DNA from: Escherichia phage ESCO5
Sequence record: NC_047776.2
Direction: 5' to 3' (one strand)
DNA: 64,000 nucleotides
A program made the position numbers and the translations under genes. The number at the start of each line of letters is the position of its first letter. Within the stretch, counting starts at the first letter, position 1. Under the pieces are notes generated by a model. The model was not told the DNA's origin and searched no databases. It saw nothing but the letters and a program-made list of their open reading frames with translations. This document shows, one piece after another, positions 2,331-37,088 of the stretch.

Positions 2331-2960
2331 ATGGCAGTGAGTGTTGACCATGTAACAACTTGGGCCAGTATCAATGAAGATGTTAAAAACCTTCTGATTG
2401 AAGATTTTAAATCTTCTCCTAACATTGTCAAGCTCCTCTACATCGTATCCAGTGAAAAGCAAAAGATAGATCAGGCAATGATCTATCTTGCTAAACACCG
2501 CTTGATCTCCACAGCCACAGGCAAATACCTAGATATCTTAGGAGAAGAAATGGGGATCGAACGTAATGGCTCTGATGATGAAGAGTATAGAACAATATTA
2601 AAAATCAGGGCTTACCGCGTAGCCTCATCGGGGACTCGTGGTGACATAATTGATATCTTCGCCCGTTTCACAGGAACAGAGCGTGAAACGCTTAATACTT
2701 ACGTAGGTTTGAATAAAACCTTTGATGTGTTTTTCTACAACCTGTGTCTTCAATCTGATCAAGCTTTAGAGCAGTTGCTAAGTGTTTTCCCTATTATTAG
2801 TAGCTACCGTCTTGGAGCAAAAGCAGGATCAGCTTTTGGTTTTAGTTCTTATTATGCTGCCAAACCGCCTCATGGTATTGGTGGTTTAGGTTCCCTGTAC
2901 ATGGAATCTACTGGGGATGAAACAGGACGCATGTGTACGCTTCTCAAGCAAATAGATTAA
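2331..2960 (+). CDS. baseplate/tail protein (gpI-like, tentative)
   Basis: 209-aa ORF directly after the gpJ-like gene; context-based call. Confidence 0.4.
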   Translation: MAVSVDHVTTWASINEDVKNLLIEDFKSSPNIVKLLYIVSSEKQKIDQAMIYLAKHRLISTATGKYLDILGEEMGIERNGSDDEEYRTILKIRAYRVASSGTRGDIIDIFARFTGTERETLNTYVGLNKTFDVFFYNLCLQSDQALEQLLSVFPIISSYRLGAKAGSAFGFSSYYAAKPPHGIGGLGSLYMESTGDETGRMCTLLKQID

Positions 2961-2969
2961 GGAGTTTAA

Positions 2970-4031
2970 ATGGCGAAGCCAATATATTATCCTGACTGGG
3001 CTACACAAACTGTAACGCTCCCAGGAACTTTAAACACAAACAAAATTAGACCTAAAGAAACCATCCGCACAATTGGTATGGATTATGGTCAAATCATGAC
3101 TTGCGAAGAAATGAACTGGATTCTTAATAATATCGGTTTATGGATTCGCTATTTGGTGGATGACTTTCTTCCAACTTTACCTGATACTTACTTGCCTTTA
3201 ATTGGAACTAAGATTACAATGGCAGGTGATGCTACTGGTGAGGCTACTTGGAATGGTAATAAAGAAGTTACTTTATCTATCCAAGTTCAAGATAATAGTC
3301 ATAATCACTTGTCGGCAAACATTACAGATGCCACTAGTTCAACAGTAACACCAAACGTGTTGGTAAAACGTGATGCAGGTGGTGCTATTTACGGTGGTGA
3401 TATTTATGTTAATGGCACTTCCACAACAGATCCTGCAACACTGTTCTTCAAAAACTTTGCAGGACAAACGAATGGTGAGATTTCTGCCGAGTATCAAAGC
3501 GGAGGTCAGCTTTACATCTATCGTAGAAATCCTAGCACAGGTAGTGTATCGGCAGGTGTTCGTTTATATGATGCAGGTTATGTTCTAATAGATAATCCAA
3601 GATCAAACAGTGGACAAGACACTTCTAACGGAAATGCTTTAGTTCGTTTAGATTATCTGAACTCTCGTTTGACTTCCCTTCAGAATACATTGCAGACGAA
3701 TATTAACACTGTTCAAAACAACTTGAATAATGTTAACAACAACCTCTCTTCTCGTATAAACAATGTAGAAAGTAATCATCAAAGTCAGATTACAAATAAC
3801 TACAACTATGCTAACGGAACCTTTGTAAGAGATATTCGTTATACTAGCCAAGGTGTGTATTATCCACCAGGGAACGAGGTTTCTTGGACTTATATCTGTT
3901 CTTCTGGTTATGTTCTTTCTGGTATTATCGTACAGGAAACAGGACGTAGCTCTGCGGATAACATCGGTGGGGTTTACTTCAAACGCCTCCAGCGCAACGT
4001 TAACGGAAACTGGTACGATATTGGAGGCTAA
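2970..4031 (+). CDS. tail fibre protein
   Basis: 353 aa with N/Q-rich heptad-like segment (NTVQNNLNNVNNNLSSRINNVESN) and Gly/Ser/Thr-rich C-terminal part; sits in the fibre gene block. Confidence 0.5.
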   Translation: MAKPIYYPDWATQTVTLPGTLNTNKIRPKETIRTIGMDYGQIMTCEEMNWILNNIGLWIRYLVDDFLPTLPDTYLPLIGTKITMAGDATGEATWNGNKEVTLSIQVQDNSHNHLSANITDATSSTVTPNVLVKRDAGGAIYGGDIYVNGTSTTDPATLFFKNFAGQTNGEISAEYQSGGQLYIYRRNPSTGSVSAGVRLYDAGYVLIDNPRSNSGQDTSNGNALVRLDYLNSRLTSLQNTLQTNINTVQNNLNNVNNNLSSRINNVESNHQSQITNNYNYANGTFVRDIRYTSQGVYYPPGNEVSWTYICSSGYVLSGIIVQETGRSSADNIGGVYFKRLQRNVNGNWYDIGG

Positions 4032-4577
4032 ATGATATTTACAAACTTTAAAAAATATATTCCTGAAGACCCTGAACTAAAAGAATTGGTAGAAGCAGAG
4101 AACATTCTTTTTCTTCGTTGCGATCAAGGTTACGATTGGTATGATTTACGTAGCACAGAATTCAATAACGATAAAATGAAAGTCGTTTTTGATGATCAAA
4201 ATCGTATTGTGTTTTGGAATACTGATCCTACACTACTTTGCCCTGAAGATCTTTCTATAGCACAAGTAGACTTTAACATAGATACTTTTGAGGATATTAG
4301 GAACAAGGTTCTGGATTTAGAAACCTTAACTCTTAAGAATAAAGAGTATTCCCGTGAAGAGTTGATGACACAAGCTAGTGCAAAAATTCGCTCTTTACAA
4401 GAAACAGCGGTAGCACTTATAACACCTTTACAGTATGCTAAAGATTTAGAAATGGCTACTGAAGACGAATTAGCTTATCTTAAAAATCTTCAAGTTTATG
4501 TAGTTAAACTAAATCGTGTTCCGCTTCAAAAAGACTATCCTTACGCTATAGATTGGCCTACATTACCGACAGAATAA
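4032..4577 (+). CDS. hypothetical protein, possible tail fibre assembly factor
   Basis: 181-aa ORF immediately after the fibre gene with overlapping stop/start (TAAATG); context only. Confidence 0.35.
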   Translation: MIFTNFKKYIPEDPELKELVEAENILFLRCDQGYDWYDLRSTEFNNDKMKVVFDDQNRIVFWNTDPTLLCPEDLSIAQVDFNIDTFEDIRNKVLDLETLTLKNKEYSREELMTQASAKIRSLQETAVALITPLQYAKDLEMATEDELAYLKNLQVYVVKLNRVPLQKDYPYAIDWPTLPTE

Positions 4578-4586
4578 GGGATCACT

Positions 4587-25978: not shown

Positions 25979-26500
25979 TTAACTCCCCTTTGGTAGATAG
26001 AAACCATGCACTTTATCTCGATAAACAAGACGCATATCACGCTCCCAGTGTGTCCTTATATTCCGTTTCTTGAAGTATAGAGCACCTTTAGTAACATCTA
26101 AAACAGACCGCAATTCAGGAAAATGTTTCTCTAAATAAAGTAAACGCTCCGCTATTGCTTTTGCTTCCTGCCATTTATCTTTCTCTGTCACGTTAAAAGT
26201 TTTCGCATATGAGAATTGCCCTTTCTGGAACAAGACTCCCTTGACTGTGTTAGGGAAGTAGGCATCATTTCTTCTGTTGATTACCACATTCCCAACGGCA
26301 TTCATTCCTTTTTTACCCAGACCGCGACCTTCTGCGTAAATTGCACAAGCTAATAGAATTTTATCATTATATTGCTTTGTACATTTGTGAACTACTTTAG
26401 CGGTTTTTACGTTTGCAGCTTCGGCTTTCGCCACAACAGGTGTAAATGTAAAAGCAGTTAAGGATAGTAACGCAACTGTTACAAAGTTTTTTATCAGCAA
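25979..26500 (-). CDS. secreted cell-wall hydrolase (SleB/Hydrolase_2-like); candidate endolysin or peptidoglycan-remodelling enzyme
   Basis: 173 aa; TTG start 7 nt after AAGGAGG; N-terminal signal-like segment (VALLSLTAFTFTPVVAKA); AIYAEGRG motif typical of SleB-type hydrolases. Confidence 0.55.
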   Translation of the reverse strand: MLIKNFVTVALLSLTAFTFTPVVAKAEAANVKTAKVVHKCTKQYNDKILLACAIYAEGRGLGKKGMNAVGNVVINRRNDAYFPNTVKGVLFQKGQFSYAKTFNVTEKDKWQEAKAIAERLLYLEKHFPELRSVLDVTKGALYFKKRNIRTHWERDMRLVYRDKVHGFYLPKGS

Positions 26501-26596: not shown

Positions 26597-27199
26597 TTAT
26601 GGACATTCATACCATTCTTTTTTACCACCGAAGGCCATTACCACATCGCAAATATCCAGACCAGCTTTACCTACACCATATGCTTTCAGCTTCCATTCTC
26701 CATCTTCACGAACCAGGGAAGCCACGTGGCAGATTGTGTTGCCAGCTACTTCAGGAGCCAGGAAGTCAAAATCCAGAATTTCCACATTACGCTCGGAGTC
26801 GAAGATTTTAAGCATACCTTCAGAAGCATGACCAAAACGTTTCAGACCTGTATCATCATCAATAGTCAGAACAAAGGCAATCTCTTGTGCATCAGGAGAG
26901 ATTTTAGCCAGAGTAATATCAATCTGCTCCATGCTGCCAGTTCCATCACGAACATCGTCACCAGCAAAGGTAGAACGTTCAGGATCAAACTTATTAGCAT
27001 AGCAAACCAGATGACGTGCAGACAGCATTTCAGGATTGCCAGCGGCATTGTGACGACAAACCAGTGCACTTACATCCAGATCCAGTTTAGAATCAGATTT
27101 CCAAGAGAACTCCAGGCGTAGTTCTTTCAGAGCCGGAGCAACTTTCTTCAGGGAAATTTTTTCGCTAGAGCCTTTTTTCAGGGAAATTTTATCAGTCAT
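26597..27199 (-). CDS. terD: TerD-family protein
   Basis: 200 aa; duplicated N-terminal ISLKK motif, LDLDVSALV, FAGDDVRDGTG, IAFVLTIDD and GEWKLKAYG closely parallel E. coli TerD. Confidence 0.8.
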   Translation of the reverse strand: MTDKISLKKGSSEKISLKKVAPALKELRLEFSWKSDSKLDLDVSALVCRHNAAGNPEMLSARHLVCYANKFDPERSTFAGDDVRDGTGSMEQIDITLAKISPDAQEIAFVLTIDDDTGLKRFGHASEGMLKIFDSERNVEILDFDFLAPEVAGNTICHVASLVREDGEWKLKAYGVGKAGLDICDVVMAFGGKKEWYECP

Positions 27200-27214: not shown

Positions 27215-27484
27215 TTATTTAAGTGTAATACCAGTTACAGTCAATTCTACTTCCAAAAGCTTAGATGTGTTTTGGATTGATACTAATTGTGCATGATGGT
27301 TTAGTTCTACAGCAGAATAATCATTTTCCCCATCATCTACTTTTAAATAAACAATGATTTCACTAAGGTCTAAACCATTTTCGTCAAATGCATTTTCATA
27401 GACGAAAGTATCTCCTACATCCAAATCTTTAATGGTAAGGCATCGTTTATTTACTTTTTGCTCATCAATTTCGAAGTTTAACAC
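27215..27484 (-). CDS. small protein, paralog of 28506-28784, sits directly upstream of terD
   Basis: 89 aa; shares DLDVGDTF(V/M)Y, DENGLD and (T/N)ITLK with its paralog. Confidence 0.5.
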   Translation of the reverse strand: MLNFEIDEQKVNKRCLTIKDLDVGDTFVYENAFDENGLDLSEIIVYLKVDDGENDYSAVELNHHAQLVSIQNTSKLLEVELTVTGITLK

Positions 27485-27713
27485 TTCTTCCTCCTAATAT
27501 TATCTCCGGTTTATATATACGAAGAATTATAGCATTTTCATTTTCTTTGTCAACCCATTCTTCATAATCAGGCCATACATGAATCTCTACTCTACTTACA
27601 ATATCTTCCATTCGCACAGTCCCAATGAAATACTCTTTGAGACTGCACATAATGAAAGCTTCTCTCTCGCGCCAATAATTTTCTATGACTTGAGAGGCAA
27701 GCTCGTCGATCAT
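27465..27713 (-). CDS. hypothetical protein
   Basis: 82-aa ORF with overlaps at both ends. Confidence 0.4.
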   Translation of the reverse strand: MIDELASQVIENYWREREAFIMCSLKEYFIGTVRMEDIVSRVEIHVWPDYEEWVDKENENAIILRIYKPEIILGGRSVKLRN

Positions 27714-28504
27714 TTTTTAGCACCTACTTTAACAACCCACTCTCCGAACTCTTCAGATAAGAGTTTGTCATAAAGCTCTGAATCTGTCAAGTCTAAATCT
27801 TTAATGCCAATAAAACCAACATTATCATAAGCATTTGCCAGTTCTTTCAGGAAGCCAAACTTCTCATTACCAACGCCAACCATGAACCAATAAATAGGTT
27901 TATTCTTATTCTCTTCAATAAGACGACGAACAGCACTAGGATCACCATTCTCACCATCCGTCTGGAAGAATACAACACCAGGGGTAACGTCAGCACCTGG
28001 TTCAGACACAGCTACAACCTTTTCACGCTCTACAGATACTGTTTCAGTTTTACCAAGCAGACGATTAAAGAAGCCTTTCTTTGGAGCCTCTTCTTGTACC
28101 ACTTGTTTAGTGGTAATATATTTGGTAACAGTGCCAAAATACTCATCGTAGATATCTGCCATTACAGGGGCGTAATTTGTTCCACCTCCGATACGAACAT
28201 TACGCATACATTTACCAACATAGTCATCGTAAACGTCTGCTGTTGCTGGAGTAAGCTCTTGGGAACTCGTATTGAAGGCCCACATATCAATTTGTTGATT
28301 ATCGTCGAACAGCATACCAAAAGGAAGCAGTTTACCTACAAAATCACTCACTACCCCACTAGAATATAGACCATGCATACTACCAGAAATATCTAGAGCA
28401 CATGCTACACGAAGAACAATCTTACCTTCATTCAGGTTCTTATTCTTTTTCAGAGAGAAAGCAAGGTTTTCTTGACGTTTTTTCAGGCTGATTTTATCGG
28501 ACAT
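27710..28504 (-). CDS. TerD-N-terminal motif plus von Willebrand factor A domain protein (TerY/TerF-like)
   Basis: 264 aa; N-terminus MSDKISLKK as in TerD; vWA MIDAS motif LDISGSM, then GGGTNY and FFQTDGENGD. Confidence 0.7.
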   Translation of the reverse strand: MSDKISLKKRQENLAFSLKKNKNLNEGKIVLRVACALDISGSMHGLYSSGVVSDFVGKLLPFGMLFDDNQQIDMWAFNTSSQELTPATADVYDDYVGKCMRNVRIGGGTNYAPVMADIYDEYFGTVTKYITTKQVVQEEAPKKGFFNRLLGKTETVSVEREKVVAVSEPGADVTPGVVFFQTDGENGDPSAVRRLIEENKNKPIYWFMVGVGNEKFGFLKELANAYDNVGFIGIKDLDLTDSELYDKLLSEEFGEWVVKVGAKK

Positions 28505-28505
28505 A

Positions 28506-28784
28506 TTATTTCTCCTTCTTAAGTGTAATGTTGGTAACTTCTAAATCTACTTCCACCATATTTGTATCTGGCGGGATGCAATGAGTATAGCCTCGTTGTG
28601 CTAGTGATCCATTAATACAAATCGCACTGTTTGTGGAATTTTTAATGAACACCAAGTTACGGTAGGTATCCAACCCTGCGTCTTCATAGGCATCATAATA
28701 CATGAATGTGTCCCCTACGTCAAGATCTTCGAAAGCAATAGGTAAATCCTGACCTTTTTCTTCTTGAATATTGAATCTAAACAC
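28506..28784 (-). CDS. small protein, paralog of 27215-27484, sits directly upstream of the TerD-vWA gene
   Basis: Start placed at the GTG 5 nt after GAGGAGG so that the product aligns with the paralog (VFRFNIQEE vs MLNFEIDEQ); track ORF extends to 28850. Confidence 0.45.
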   Translation of the reverse strand: MFRFNIQEEKGQDLPIAFEDLDVGDTFMYYDAYEDAGLDTYRNLVFIKNSTNSAICINGSLAQRGYTHCIPPDTNMVEVDLEVTNITLKKEK

Positions 28785-29340
28785 GCATACCTCCTCTACC
28801 AATTTTGAAGCCCAAATCGTAAGCTTCCTTAGTAATCTTTTGTAACTCACTTATAGGAAGTGTTACAAGAGGATCATCTTCTTCAATTTCCATCTTGTCA
28901 TCTTCTGTTTCAATGAGAGTATTATGCACTTTGTGATAAGGGTTGTCAACACGTTTAAACTTATTCTTTTCTGTGCTGAAAAAACAATCTGGATCTTCTT
29001 CACCATCACCCCAACCTTGATTAGGATCTCCGTCAGATTGTTCTGTAGGGATTTCACCTGTAAAGTACTCTTCCAGCACCATAGCAATACCGTCCCTTGG
29101 ATTTGAGGAATGCATTAAATCACAAACCTTACCCCAATCCATAGCCCATTCGAACCGTTCACGAACGCCATTTTCATCCTCTTTTCCAGAGAAAACACAA
29201 CCATAACTATCATAGTTGCCATACATCTCTTCAATAACAACACCGTCTTTCAAAAGAAAGAGGTAGCAAGGTGATCCGTCGAAAGAAGTAGAAAGGGCAG
29301 CTTTGCCCGATTCTTTGCACAAAAAACTAAAACAACCCAT
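28777..29340 (-). CDS. hypothetical acidic protein
   Basis: 187-aa ORF, Asp/Glu-rich centre. Confidence 0.5.
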   Translation of the reverse strand: MGCFSFLCKESGKAALSTSFDGSPCYLFLLKDGVVIEEMYGNYDSYGCVFSGKEDENGVRERFEWAMDWGKVCDLMHSSNPRDGIAMVLEEYFTGEIPTEQSDGDPNQGWGDGEEDPDCFFSTEKNKFKRVDNPYHKVHNTLIETEDDKMEIEEDDPLVTLPISELQKITKEAYDLGFKIGRGGMRV

Positions 29341-29709: not shown

Positions 29710-29906
29710 TACTCCTCCTCCTCATTGAAGTCAATATCTGCAAGGAGTTCGAATTTACGGAAGTTACGACAACCTTCATAAATATAACAATCACGACAAA
29801 CTGCTAGAACACTTGGGGGATATATGCCTCCCATCGGTGCGAATCGTTTTTCGTCATCATAACGGACACCAATGTCTTCATCAATTATATAGATACGGAT
29901 TCTCAT
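29709..29906 (-). CDS. hypothetical protein
   Basis: 65-aa ORF, Cys-rich. Confidence 0.45.
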   Translation of the reverse strand: MRIRIYIIDEDIGVRYDDEKRFAPMGGIYPPSVLAVCRDCYIYEGCRNFRKFELLADIDFNEEEE

Positions 29907-31015
29907 TTACCAAGCCCTCGTTTCACAGCAGCTACCATCCCGTCTTCCAGAGATTGAACTTCATTAATATAATCAACACGAGCAGCACGGGCTTCCGTAT
30001 TGATGCGGTTAGTTTCTTCCAACATCTTAACCAAGTTTTCCTGATCGTGACGCAGAGTTTCAATATCCAACACTTGACGGTTAGCCAGTGCTGCTGCTTC
30101 GATCTGATTCTGTGTGGCAAGATCGCTACCTAGTTTAATTGCCAGGTTAAATTCATCAAGAACGTTATTCTGCGTCTCTGCTGCTTTCATTTGACGTAAG
30201 CTCTCGATATACATTGAGAAGTTAGCAGAGTAAGCAGGAATAACATTATTTACTATGTTACGCGCAGATCGCATTAAGCTTGCAGAAACTTTTTGCATAC
30301 CTTGTACACGCGGTCCCATTTGGACACACAGTAGGCGCAACGCCTTTAAATCTGCAATACGAATCTCCAGGAGATCCAAAGTATCTCGGATCACTTGTCG
30401 CTGTTCTACGGCATCTTCTGGAAGAGCAGCCAAAGCTTGTTCTTCTTTTTCATAGGTTGCTGTTAGAAGCTGCATATCTCGGTTCAAACTTGCAGCATAT
30501 TGTCCAATAGCTTGGTGTAGCTTTTCAAGATATACCAAGGAATCTTCTTCTTTGCGAATATCCATTTGAAGGTTCTTTACCAACTCTTCAATACGGTTAT
30601 TAACATTATCAAACTCCCCAAACAGGTCTTCTTTCATACCCATAACTTTTTTAATGAGTTTAGTAATACCCTTGCTTTGTTTAATAGAGTTTGGATCAAG
30701 TTGTTTTGCCTGTTTAATCAAGGCTGTGAGTCGTTCACTCATCTGATCGCCTTGATTACTACGTTGATGTTTTAACACCTCGGCATTCAAGGAACGCAAG
30801 GTTGTTCCTGCCTCTGCCCCAATCTCTTCGATCTCTTGTCGGGTCATAGAAGGTAAAACTGGAACTTCTTGCGGTGCTGCTGGTGCATAAACAGGACTGG
30901 CATCTAACACACTTGGAGCAAATACAGATTTACTTGCATCTGTTGTTGCAGCGAATACACTCATTTCAGACTTCTTCTGACCACCAGTAGCTGCTTTTAA
31001 AAATGGACTTGTCAT
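29903..31015 (-). CDS. TelA-like (toxic anion resistance family) helical protein, tentative
   Basis: 370 aa, predicted long helical/coiled-coil protein with Pro/Ala-rich N-terminus; size, architecture and Ter-gene context suggest TelA/KlaA; PspA-like is an alternative. Confidence 0.4.
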   Translation of the reverse strand: MTSPFLKAATGGQKKSEMSVFAATTDASKSVFAPSVLDASPVYAPAAPQEVPVLPSMTRQEIEEIGAEAGTTLRSLNAEVLKHQRSNQGDQMSERLTALIKQAKQLDPNSIKQSKGITKLIKKVMGMKEDLFGEFDNVNNRIEELVKNLQMDIRKEEDSLVYLEKLHQAIGQYAASLNRDMQLLTATYEKEEQALAALPEDAVEQRQVIRDTLDLLEIRIADLKALRLLCVQMGPRVQGMQKVSASLMRSARNIVNNVIPAYSANFSMYIESLRQMKAAETQNNVLDEFNLAIKLGSDLATQNQIEAAALANRQVLDIETLRHDQENLVKMLEETNRINTEARAARVDYINEVQSLEDGMVAAVKRGLGK

Positions 31016-33227: not shown

Positions 33228-34202
33228 TTAAACAGCAGCTTCTTCTTTTTCAGGGAAGATAAAGCTTGCAATAACACCAAGAGATAATGTGCCTAGAACA
33301 ATCATCAGACTTACGTTAGGGGAAATATCATGCGGGAGGAATGACCACTTGGCATGAAGTGTTTCACCGAACGGGTGATACATAAGTTTAGCACCAACAA
33401 ACACCAGAACCACAGCAACAGCTTTCTCTAAGTGAACCAGATATTTCACAGCTACACTTAACACAAAGAAAAGTGCACGTAAACCAAGAACAGCCATCAG
33501 CATTGCAGAATAAACTAGCAGAGGTTCTTGTGTCACACCGATTACAGCCGGAACTGAATCAAAAGAGAAGACAATATCTGTAAGCTCAATAACAAACACA
33601 CAAAGAAGAGCAGGAGTTGCATATTTAATACCATTCTTAATGGTAATGAACTTTTCACCATCTAGTGCATTGTGCACAGGCAGAACTTTACCTACTAAAC
33701 GAACAGCCCAATGCTTAGAGTAATCAATATCCTCTTCTTCGTCACCACCTTTGATGATAGCCACGGCAGACCAAGCTACAATCAAACCGAACAACACTTG
33801 GACCGACCAATGAAGGTTAAACAAAGCGGTCCCTGCTGCAACAAAAATACCTCGGAAGACAATGGCTCCTGCAATCCCCCAAAGTAAAATCTTATGTTGA
33901 AGATGTGTGCTCTTAATTCCAAAGCTTGCAAAAATTGCCATGAATACCATCAGGTTATCTACAGAAAGACTCTTTTCCAACACATAGCCACTTAGGAAAA
34001 GCGCGGCAAACTCTTTACCATGTTCTACCCAAATGAATGCGTAATATCCTAAAGCTAAAGCAATCCAAAAAACAGACCAAAGCAAAGCAGATTTAATTCC
34101 AATTTCTTTATTCTCTTTATGACCAAAGAAATCGATACCAATAGACAATGCCAAAATACCAACTAAAACAACTACATCAATAATTGGGAAACCGAGTTGC
34201 AT
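33228..34202 (-). CDS. terC: TerC-family integral membrane protein
   Basis: 324 aa, multi-pass hydrophobic; twin signatures EKSLSVDNLMVF and DIVFSFDSVPAV typical of the TerC family. Confidence 0.75.
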   Translation of the reverse strand: MQLGFPIIDVVVLVGILALSIGIDFFGHKENKEIGIKSALLWSVFWIALALGYYAFIWVEHGKEFAALFLSGYVLEKSLSVDNLMVFMAIFASFGIKSTHLQHKILLWGIAGAIVFRGIFVAAGTALFNLHWSVQVLFGLIVAWSAVAIIKGGDEEEDIDYSKHWAVRLVGKVLPVHNALDGEKFITIKNGIKYATPALLCVFVIELTDIVFSFDSVPAVIGVTQEPLLVYSAMLMAVLGLRALFFVLSVAVKYLVHLEKAVAVVLVFVGAKLMYHPFGETLHAKWSFLPHDISPNVSLMIVLGTLSLGVIASFIFPEKEEAAV

Positions 34203-34517: not shown

Positions 34518-34991
34518 TTAAAGTTTATAAATAGTCACATCGTGACCTGTTTTTACTAAAGTTTCTTCAATCATCACTTGGATGATAGCCCAATTACCTC
34601 CAGCATATCCAGCGCCAATCATAGGTAAGCCGATCTTACATTTTTGGTCACGGAGAAGCACATCATTAGCCATAGCTATTAGTGCATCGTAAAGTGCATC
34701 ATAGTCCAACTGACGACCTTTAGCATTGTATCCGTAACGGTATTGCCCGTATAGATTATATACCAAAGGGTCTGATTGTTCGTCTGGCACCCCTAAACTA
34801 AAAGAACCTAACTTACTTTGATCACCAGCCATTGTGTCTAAATCTGCCGCATATGCATAAGGGAATGCTCGTTTAATTTGCGGAGCAATTCCTGCCCCCA
34901 TATTACACATACAATTGCAACAATGAGCAATAACAGTTACTTCACCTGCTTTAGCGGCATCAATAAGATTACCTGTTTTCATTTTAAGCAT
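34518..34991 (-). CDS. macro-domain-like protein (ADP-ribose binding/processing), tentative
   Basis: Start placed at the ATG after AAGGAG (track ORF extends to 35057); IAHCCNCMCNMGAGIA and GLPMIGAGYAGG resemble macro-domain signature segments. Confidence 0.4.
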   Translation of the reverse strand: MLKMKTGNLIDAAKAGEVTVIAHCCNCMCNMGAGIAPQIKRAFPYAYAADLDTMAGDQSKLGSFSLGVPDEQSDPLVYNLYGQYRYGYNAKGRQLDYDALYDALIAMANDVLLRDQKCKIGLPMIGAGYAGGNWAIIQVMIEETLVKTGHDVTIYKL

Positions 34992-35004
34992 TTTTAGCTC
35001 CTTA

Positions 35005-35832
35005 TTACAGAATGTGTTGTTTTGTGTAACGATCCAAGAATTCAAAGTTTTCAGCATACTTTGAAATTCGGTTGTAACCTTCTCCCAAACATCCGAAGAA
35101 AAGTTGCTCTACATAGTAGTGTGGCAATTGGCTAAGAATGATTTTGAAGTCTTCGTGATTTTGGCCCATAAGATACTTAATAGGACGAACAAGACACTGT
35201 GCATCACGTTCTTCATTAATCATTTTAACAAACGCTTCTGGTGTATTGATATAGTTAAAATTCAGTTTAGCTTCAGTATCTGCTTGATTACCTTCATATT
35301 TTGCAAAATACAAGAAGTAAACATCATTTTTAACTTGATTTTCATCAAGAATCTCAATCAGTTTGTCTTCATGAGTTCCGGTGATATTTACATCATCAAT
35401 GAACACAAGCTTCTTATCACCCCAGAATTCTTTGTTGCAGTAGAATGTATCCCCATCAATAAGTTTCTTACGACTAGCTTTATCCAAGAAACCATAATCG
35501 TTGATATAGCTAACTTTACGATGAATAATATCCAGTTCTGCTGAACGACCTTGATCATATTGTGCTTGCAACATATTAAAGTAATTAATAAAATGATCTG
35601 TCATCATTGTTGCAGCATTGTGCACATGGTTATAAGGAGAAGGGATGATAACAAATTGTTCCCCAATATGTTTCATTGCCACTTGAGCAAAAAACTGAAG
35701 TACCAATTCTTTACCCATACGACGCGCAGCTTGGTTACTACCAAATTTCAATTTTGAATAGTCTTTGATATCAAAAGTAGCAGTTTCCAGGTCATCAAAT
35801 TTATTTGCAAAAATTTGAGTTTGATTACGCAT
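35005..35832 (-). CDS. phosphoribosyltransferase-like protein (type I PRTase fold)
   Basis: 275 aa; KKLVFIDDVNITGTHEDKL matches the PRPP-binding motif (hydrophobic-hydrophobic-D-D-hydrophobic-x-T-G-T). Confidence 0.5.
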   Translation of the reverse strand: MRNQTQIFANKFDDLETATFDIKDYSKLKFGSNQAARRMGKELVLQFFAQVAMKHIGEQFVIIPSPYNHVHNAATMMTDHFINYFNMLQAQYDQGRSAELDIIHRKVSYINDYGFLDKASRKKLIDGDTFYCNKEFWGDKKLVFIDDVNITGTHEDKLIEILDENQVKNDVYFLYFAKYEGNQADTEAKLNFNYINTPEAFVKMINEERDAQCLVRPIKYLMGQNHEDFKIILSQLPHYYVEQLFFGCLGEGYNRISKYAENFEFLDRYTKQHIL

Positions 35833-36481
35833 TTACAATTTCTCCTCTTTTAAGTTTCTCTAGTAAGTCGTTAGGGTTCTTAATATGACAGAAGTTAATC
35901 CCTATGTCAACACATTTACCATCAAATTCTTCGCTGTCCCCAACATGTAAAATCTCTTCAGCCTTCAAAGGAATGCTTGAATATGTGGCGGTCCTAACAA
36001 AGAATCTAGGATCTGGTTTACATAACAGATGTTCGTCTGAAAAATGCATAAATTCAAAACAATTCCAACTGTCGAACATACAAGCACGACGCAAAATATC
36101 CCCAGATATAAAATTAGTATTGCTTTTAATACTAAGATCATATTTACCAGACAAGTATAGCAAACAAACTGGCAAATCTAAAGCGATATGTGGAGGAAAT
36201 TTAAGAAACCATTGCTCACAATCAAAACGCATTTGTGCAGATTCTACAGGGGTTAAACCTATCTTTCTTCCCAACATATTCCATGCATATGCTACACCTT
36301 CTGCACACCCATTTAGTGCAGCATTATCCATAATTTCTTTGGCATCTTTATATGCTTCTTTTGCCGCACGTTCAGACATTCTACCATATGTAGCAATAGT
36401 GTGCGTACGTGCATCTGCATAGTTTTGATTGGCAGAAATAAGAGTATTCCATACATCAAAAGAAATATGTTTTATTGTCAT
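35825..36481 (-). CDS. HAD-superfamily hydrolase-like protein
   Basis: Start placed at MTIKHISFDVWNTL; motif I-like FDVWNTL (second Asp replaced, as in haloacid dehalogenases) and motif IV-like LHVGDSEEFD. Confidence 0.4.
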   Translation of the reverse strand: MTIKHISFDVWNTLISANQNYADARTHTIATYGRMSERAAKEAYKDAKEIMDNAALNGCAEGVAYAWNMLGRKIGLTPVESAQMRFDCEQWFLKFPPHIALDLPVCLLYLSGKYDLSIKSNTNFISGDILRRACMFDSWNCFEFMHFSDEHLLCKPDPRFFVRTATYSSIPLKAEEILHVGDSEEFDGKCVDIGINFCHIKNPNDLLEKLKRGEIVNA

Positions 36482-36482
36482 A

Positions 36483-37088
36483 CTAGGCCCACCACGCATC
36501 AAGATTTAAGTTACTGTCTACCACAACTTGTTCTATGTGGTAGCCTTTTATCTGTATCCCACTGTTCAAGAGCATATCATATGCTTCATTGAAACGCAAC
36601 TTATCTTCTGCGGAATATAAGCGAGCATTGTAAAATCGGTAATCAAGTTCTTCAGCATTAGAAGAAATACGGAAGAAGTTTGTTTCTACTTCAGGATCAC
36701 TTGCTGAAGTTTTAATGTGAACTTCTCCGTAATTTTCTTTGCTTAGATCCATGAAAAGAACACAGGCAACATGTTTAAACATTCGTTCCAGTTTGTAACG
36801 AACAACATTGAAACCTGCGTTCTCAAGTTTTTCTACACATTGCAACATTAACGTAGTGTCGAGATCGCTTTGATACTTTGTTAACATACGATCACGTTGA
36901 GACTTTGTATCCCGATGTAAATCAATTGTTGTGCATTTGGCACCAATGATCTTAGCTGCTTTCATCAACTCTTCAGAACTAACGTTAGATAAAGTAAGAT
37001 GAAAATGGGCTTTCCACACTTTTTTAGCAGGGACACCAAAAGATTTATCCCCACTATTCGGCATGTTGACTACTACACTATGTTGCAT
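36483..37088 (-). CDS. hypothetical protein
   Basis: 201-aa ORF. Confidence 0.5.
   Translation of the reverse strand: MQHSVVVNMPNSGDKSFGVPAKKVWKAHFHLTLSNVSSEELMKAAKIIGAKCTTIDLHRDTKSQRDRMLTKYQSDLDTTLMLQCVEKLENAGFNVVRYKLERMFKHVACVLFMDLSKENYGEVHIKTSASDPEVETNFFRISSNAEELDYRFYNARLYSAEDKLRFNEAYDMLLNSGIQIKGYHIEQVVVDSNLNLDAWWA

Follow-up and report, generated by a model that had tools for sequence, protein, structure and literature searches.

Two short open reading frames (ORFs) for acidic proteins lie on the minus strand of Escherichia phage ESCO5 (NC_047776.2), one directly ahead of a gene for a protein with a von Willebrand factor A (vWA) domain of the TerF type and the other directly ahead of a terD gene. 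How are these two proteins related to each other, and what are they to the Ter genes that they precede? The stretch analyzed, called the window here, is 64,000 nucleotides long. By sequence comparison the two proteins, termed small A and small B, are true paralogs. We tentatively propose that they are putative dedicated accessory subunits or adaptors of the phage Ter vWA and TerD proteins; the gene linkage and the predicted structures favor this role without making it secure. The genes concerned are listed below in their order along the minus strand.

28777–29340, minus strand: ORF of 187 aa, phrog_14928, function not assigned; its 3' end, stop codon included, runs 8 nt into the start of small B.
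28506–28784, minus strand: small B, acidic protein of 92 aa ('pre-vWA' type), phrog_11278, GTG start, isoelectric point (pI) 4.35.
27710–28504, minus strand: stand-alone vWA-TerF-like protein of 264 aa, PF10138, no TerD domain.
27465–27713, minus strand: ORF of 82 aa, phrog_22387, between the vWA gene and small A.
27215–27484, minus strand: small A, acidic protein of 89 aa ('pre-TerD' type), phrog_11278, GTG start, pI 4.26.
26597–27199, minus strand: TerD-domain protein of 200 aa, PF02342.

Small A and small B align from end to end in BLASTP with 33 identities over 93 positions (35%, 51.6 bits, E 2e-15). The Smith–Waterman score of the pair is 130, against 27 ± 5 in 2000 shuffles (z=20). Both proteins match the same family, phrog_11278, with E 7e-45 for small A (residues 1–89 of the 92-position model) and E 6.7e-51 for small B (1–92 of 92), and a six-frame scan of the window with the hidden Markov model (HMM) of the family finds exactly these two members. 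The paralogy that a sequence-only reading had proposed is thus borne out by pairwise alignment, but two of the motifs on which it had leaned were misread. The supposedly common DENGLD is DENGLD in small A and EDAGLD in small B, leaving only GLD in common, and the motif given as (T/N)ITLK is (G/N)ITLK. We also considered the small proteins and the 82-aa ORF as degenerate fragments of TerD or vWA, and rejected this: BLASTP gave E values of at least 0.45, and the TerD and vWA HMMs matched the expected genes only.

Each small gene has GTG as its start codon, with a GGAGG Shine–Dalgarno sequence 5 nt ahead of it. These starts are well supported on comparative grounds, as distinct from experimental proof, because orthologs in phiWec181, Klebsiella phage 05F01, L005–L011 and L020 (L numbers denote the loci compared) have ATG at the aligned start position, and because the annotation of ESCO13 gives the same 279-nt coding sequence for small B, with a ribosome-binding site. 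The GTG start suggested earlier for 28506–28784 can therefore be retained. The stop codon of small B is followed after 1 nt by the ATG of the 264-aa gene (MSDKISLKK...), and that of small A after 15 nt by the ATG of TerD (MTDKISLKK...), so the earlier observation that each small gene sits immediately upstream of a gene opening with M(T/S)DKISLKK is correct. Small A and TerD share a reading frame, with two stop codons between them. The KEK C-terminus of small B is the Shine–Dalgarno region of the vWA gene (AAGGAGAAATAA) translated in frame, whereas small A ends just ahead of the equivalent Shine–Dalgarno sequence.

Junctions as tight as these, with gaps of 1–15 nt, GTG starts and a C-terminal tail of small B that is a translated Shine–Dalgarno sequence, would also be expected if the small ORFs were mainly translated leaders that couple translation to the vWA and TerD starts, their protein products being incidental. 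We consider this very improbable. The hydrophobic pattern and the motifs of the family are held at the protein level across members of 25–45% identity, and AlphaFold predicts a confident fold for the small protein. The downstream genes have strong Shine–Dalgarno sequences of their own, and in four more distant relatives (L012–L015) TerD and vWA are expressed with no such leaders.

The 264-aa protein had been read as a TerD–vWA protein, a description that does not hold. In Pfam it matches PF10138 only (130.1 bits against a gathering cutoff of 29.4, E 1.6e-37), with no TerD domain, and its similarity to TerD is limited to the first ~20 residues (E 0.033). In the AlphaFold model (predicted local distance difference test score, pLDDT, 92.3), residues 7–20 form a helix that leads directly into the vWA fold. 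The metal-ion-dependent adhesion site (MIDAS) consists of D38-x-S40-x-S42, T109 and D183; among 39 homologs D38, S42, T109 and D183 are invariant, and S40 is nearly so. The structural neighbors of the model are copine BON1, integrin I domains and the MIDAS of MDN1/Rea1. The model also has a long arm, a two-stranded β-hairpin made of residues 125–169 (27995–28132, minus strand) with strands of ~17 residues each, and this arm corresponds to the gap between the two PF10138 match segments. The 200-aa protein is a TerD by both measures used: it matches PF02342 (98.9 bits against a cutoff of 25.3, E 3e-28) and is a homolog of Klebsiella pneumoniae TerD (2KXT, E 1.5e-15).

The shared opening of the two proteins is older than the phage locus. 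An N-terminus of the form φ-S-L-K-K...φ-S-L-K-K, where φ is hydrophobic, is present in all 60-odd homologs, including bacterial stand-alone ones (for example Neobacillus, MTVIDLTKKAKIVLEKK), and the K-φ-S-L-K-K motif is found again in the linker of bacterial TerD–vWA fusions of the TerF type. Since the motif occurs in both of these bacterial contexts, it predates these phages and is no remnant of a phage TerD duplication; on the sequences compared, it is a general feature of the vWA-TerF-like family.

These observations bear on the history proposed by the sequence-only reading, in which an ancestral unit of small gene plus TerD was duplicated and one TerD was then replaced or extended by a vWA domain while the M(T/S)DKISLKK start was kept. 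TerD–vWA fusions do exist in bacteria, each of the two units has its own predicted promoter, and a junction stretch of 83 nt, which covers the small-gene 3' end and the opening 9 codons of the gene after it, is 70% identical between the units (E 2e-6). The junction similarity is accounted for by two independently conserved protein segments together with the Shine–Dalgarno sequence. The differing serine codons (AGC in one gene, TCC in the other) argue against recently shared DNA, the vWA protein lacks a TerD domain and has an N-terminus predicted to be helical, and relatives carry the vWA–TerD pair with one small gene or none. The genes upstream of the small ones were compared to test whether a duplication had taken in upstream sequence: the 82-aa and 187-aa proteins show no significant similarity, and their common GG(R/M)xV endings are only the Shine–Dalgarno sequence and start codon of the next gene read in the upstream frame. 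The domain, structural and comparative data together contradict this history, and we regard it as highly unlikely. The division into two units stands as an expression layout, each with a promoter of its own, but not as a record of duplication.

What was duplicated instead can be seen from the gene arrangements among relatives, which are as follows.

Small, vWA, TerD: Justusliebigvirus alia, L018, L019 and Klebsiella phage 05F01.
vWA, small, TerD: metagenomic relatives L005, L007 and L011.
Small directly upstream of TerD, the contig ending just upstream of the small gene: L006.
vWA, small, small, TerD: L008, L009 and L010.
Small B, vWA, 82-aa, small A, TerD: phiWec181 and the window phage.
Small, small, vWA, 80-aa, small, TerD (three copies): L020.
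TelA ... vWA, TerD, SleB, with no family member: the more distant relatives L012–L015.

In all 17 examined loci that carry the family, with members down to ~25–30% identity, the small gene touches vWA and/or TerD. Counted from the stop of the small gene, vWA begins after −1 to +1 nt in the four pre-vWA loci for which this was determined, and TerD after 10–35 nt. Because copy number varies in the small gene only, around a constant vWA–TerD pair, the comparison indicates repeated duplication, relocation and loss of the small gene alone. L020, which is phiWec181-like, has two tandem members before vWA (2728–3279) and one before TerD (4301–4582). Its three copies indicate that there are two sub-lineages of the pre-vWA type (90 aa and 92 aa), and that phiWec181 and the window phage differ in which of them was lost. 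In L012 (3153–3485) and L013 (4244–4594), an unrelated family of acidic proteins of 110–116 aa occupies the same two slots, either ahead of vWA or in the interval from vWA to TerD; the two proteins are 27% identical to each other (E 1.7e-8).

The vWA and TerD proteins appear to be linked to each other as well. We compared the tandem K-φ-S-L-K-K regions of vWA (28445–28504, minus strand) and TerD (27140–27199, minus strand) with those of the same genes in L002–L015. Within each of 12 phages the same hydrophobic residue is found in the vWA and TerD motifs, the pairs being I/I, V/V or L/L, and the residues agree in 20 of 24 cases where 8.5 are expected by random pairing (permutation P = 3e-5). 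L015 has L-N-L in both proteins. At least three independent concerted switches can be seen (L010 versus L011, L014 versus 05F01, and L015). Recent gene conversion between the two 5' ends was considered and rejected as unlikely, since the synonymous and serine codons of the two genes differ. The co-variation suggests that the N-termini of vWA and TerD form a shared interaction surface, through which they would either contact a common partner or bind one another. The motif is kept also in phages that lack the small family.

The AlphaFold model of small A is a small, acidic β-barrel that appears SH3-like, a confident prediction obtained from only 18 sequences. Acidity is general in the family, with all members having a pI of 4.3–5.5, and a G37-L38-D39 loop and a G-[DE]-T-F turn are conserved. 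No model in Pfam, NCBIfam or PADLOC matches the small proteins, a sequence-profile search of the Protein Data Bank gave noise only (E of at least 0.7), and our literature searches returned nothing on these proteins or on Phapecoctavirus ter genes. Foldseek searches of viral models matched only other uncharacterized small phage proteins.

The family is rare. An exhaustive HMMER search of 1.84 billion cluster representatives gave 22 matches, in which the family members are single-domain proteins of 87–93 aa and the remaining matches are either fragments or weak, repeat-based matches within long proteins; at 90% identity the family forms 19 clusters. It occurs at 194 places in 125 GenBank phage records. 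A scan of IMG/VR for related loci, run with protein P0025, found nothing. Among 185,579 species genomes the sole match was a contig 99% identical to the phage region. This contig (L016, JAEZZU010000159.1) is 18.6 kb long, comes from a metagenome-assembled genome labelled 'Proteobacteria bacterium', and is most likely phage DNA binned with it. On these searches the family is phage-restricted, belonging to phAPEC8/phi92-like phages and their metagenomic relatives. One further sequence, P0009 (55 aa, on a 14.5-kb contig), combines the N-terminal end of the 187-aa protein (MGCFSFLCKESGKAALSTSFDGS...) with the last third of small B in one reading frame; most of the 187-aa and small B genes was apparently lost here by natural deletion.

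A conserved sigma70-type promoter is predicted ahead of each small gene, which would be its first cistron. The two sites are as follows.

27526–27553, minus strand: predicted promoter with a perfect 12/12 sigma70 consensus, TTGACA-16 nt-TGcTATAAT (extended −10), inside the 82-aa gene, ~42 nt ahead of the GTG of small A.
28921–28949, minus strand: predicted promoter with an 11/12 sigma70-like sequence, TTGACA-17-CATAAT, within the 187-aa gene and 137 nt ahead of the GTG of small B.

In phiWec181, L017 and L020 (L020 4235–4262) the 12/12 promoter is unchanged, even though the identity of the small A protein is 43%. The 11/12 promoter has the same hexamers and spacing in Justusliebigvirus alia (L002 4836–4864) and in L020 (2563–2591), and a conserved promoter site is also present at L003 4935–4962. 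Relatives that have no 82-aa gene carry a 10–11/12 promoter within the 3' part of vWA, before the small gene and/or TerD. The 82-aa ORF is confined to Phapecoctavirus-type loci, and the promoter of small A and TerD lies inside its 3' part. No terminator-like site was seen between the two units. The promoters are of the host type and presumably early.

If the small proteins are accessory subunits, they would be stoichiometric adaptors or assembly chaperones of vWA and TerD, co-produced with them early in infection from promoters read by the host RNA polymerase. The copies would have specialized after duplication, small B for the MIDAS-containing vWA protein and small A for the Ca-binding TerD. 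Two modes of contact can be envisaged. An acidic loop residue, in G37-L38-D39 or in the G-[DE]-T-F turn, could complete the metal coordination of the vWA MIDAS. Alternatively, the acidic barrel could bind the lysine-rich tandem K-φ-S-L-K-K motif that opens both vWA and TerD. We count in favor of a partner role the invariant MIDAS of the vWA protein, its structural neighbors in which a MIDAS binds a small domain by way of an acidic residue (MDN1/Rea1 with a ubiquitin-like domain, UBL), and the co-variation of the vWA and TerD openings. A more specific version, that the small proteins are specificity or assembly subunits which read K-φ-S-L-K-K or plug the MIDAS through a conserved aspartate and so steer the assembly of a sub-membrane TerD–vWA(–TelA) complex in the infected cell, is speculative, and we think it improbable as it stands. 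If it were true, the concerted I/V/L switches would mark a three-way co-evolving interface, and the small proteins would offer a first way into the assembly of the soluble Ter components at the molecular level.

Several points weigh against a dedicated role. The dedicated-partner proposal of the sequence-only reading is compatible with the linkage to vWA or TerD in 17 of 17 loci, but one related myovirus lineage with conserved synteny supplies all of these loci, so the co-occurrences are not independent. By HMM scan, L012–L015 keep TelA, vWA, TerD and SleB with no family member; the core module would thus either not need the small protein or have unrelated small proteins in its place. Nor is D39 fully conserved among the most divergent members. 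In addition, the neighbor-joining distance tree of the small family, with 32–63% bootstrap at its key nodes, is too weak to place the A/B duplication within Stephanstirmvirinae or earlier.

Alternatively, the linkage may be one of descent only, the small genes being fast-evolving early ORFans, with host take-over or anti-defense roles, that sit in a variable slot and do not act on the Ter proteins. Accessory or arms-race genes typically vary as the family does here, with 0–3 copies and recurrent tandem duplication and loss, and the sigma70-type promoters point to early expression. Unrelated small acidic proteins in both slots of L012 and L013 suggest an insertion hot spot, the vWA–TerD pair persists in L012–L015 with no small family, and the structural matches among viral models are confined to uncharacterized small phage proteins. 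Yet the small gene has moved (before vWA, between the two genes, in tandem) and still touches vWA or TerD wherever the family was examined, while the 64-kb window holds only the two copies. The small/vWA stop and start codons overlap or lie 1 nt apart, and the family is retained at the low identities given above. On balance we consider descent alone rather unlikely, though as the main alternative it deserves more weight than the leader or unit-duplication explanations, and we keep to the accessory-subunit reading as the working one.

The paralogs and their neighbors form part of a larger gene cluster. The window phage is a phAPEC8-like coliphage (genus Phapecoctavirus, subfamily Stephanstirmvirinae), and all genes of the region are on the minus strand. 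A 2.9-kb region matches Escherichia phage vB_EcoM-Ro121c4YLVW at 99% identity and ~60 further phAPEC8-like phages at 98–99%. Along the minus strand the order is HAD, PRTase, Macro ... TerC ... SprT, TelA ... small B, vWA-TerF-like, 82-aa, small A, TerD, SleB. The remaining members are listed below.

34518–36502, minus strand: genes for a Macro domain, PRTase_3 (PF15610) and HAD-like proteins, upstream of TerC; a Ter-associated nucleotide-derivative module.
33228–34202, minus strand: TerC membrane protein (Pfam, 138 bits), same Ter cluster.
29903–31015, minus strand: TelA (Pfam, 116 bits), same Ter cluster.
25979–26500, minus strand: SleB-type cell-wall hydrolase, downstream of TerD.

Within the nucleotide-derivative module, PRTase_3 scores 142 bits, the HAD-type matches are weak, and the Macro protein has a weak DarG-like match. 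TerC, TelA, TerD, vWA, PRTase and HAD genes are co-located in one orientation, as expected of a Ter system, and gene content marks the locus as the soluble core of a Ter (tellurite-resistance-like stress/defense) cluster that is borne by a phage and fairly complete. The module of Macro, PRTase_3 and HAD-like genes sits here in a coliphage of ~150 kb, which is not a jumbo phage. Justusliebigvirus alia has an additional 200-aa gene between TerD and SleB (L002 6788–7390), with no Pfam match, that is not present in the window phage.

Ter clusters occur widely, in bacteria, on plasmids and in some phages, and we know of no account of how TerD, the TerF-type vWA protein and TelA work together. Phage-encoded Ter systems with TerC, TelA, TerD, TerF-type vWA, PRTase and HAD proteins were reportedly described by Anantharaman, Iyer and Aravind in 2012. 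A small protein that is linked to vWA–TerD and repeatedly duplicated would be a cheap experimental entry point to Ter function, and the co-variation of the vWA and TerD N-termini predicts a concrete interface. Should the small proteins be unrelated early ORFans, the pattern would amount to ordinary phage gene turnover.

Phage-encoded Ter systems are described by Iyer et al. 2021 (PMC7824862). Ter clusters in virulent phages have been noted before, and superinfection exclusion or stress tolerance is proposed for them in two papers (PMC7824862, PMC8386662). The window resembles these systems in its co-oriented TerC, TelA, TerD, vWA-TerF-like, PRTase_3, HAD-like and Macro genes. It differs in its two small proteins: the passages on Ter systems in the same two papers mention no small SH3-like component. 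The 264-aa protein resembles TerF of terZABCDEF in matching PF10138, the 'vWA found in TerF C terminus', and it shares the K/Q-rich φ-x-L-x-K repeats of the TerD–vWA linker of TerF-type fusions. Those fusions (PF02342 plus PF10138) are bacterial proteins of 424–459 aa and 28–31% identity, whereas the phage protein has 264 aa and the vWA domain alone. Both small proteins match phrog_11278 (PHROGs v4) over its full length, an entry that carries no annotation of function, context or fold.

In the Rea1/MDN1 MIDAS–Ytm1/NLE1 UBL pair and in integrin I-domain–ligand pairs, a small β-rich domain is bound through one conserved acidic residue. The phage proteins recall these pairs in the MIDAS neighbors of the vWA model and, on the side of the small family, in a conserved G-L-D loop and a surface that is acidic. 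The analogy is one of mechanism only, as the small proteins are predicted to be SH3-like rather than ubiquitin-like and are known here from single-chain models. Their predicted fold can be set beside SH3-like barrels, such as the C-terminal domain of ribosomal L2, EF-P domain I/KOW, FeoA, the C-terminal domain of DtxR, and Tudor. Compared with these systems, the small family is best viewed as a new, lineage-specific, putative accessory component of a known Ter-type system, and the finding is real but modest.

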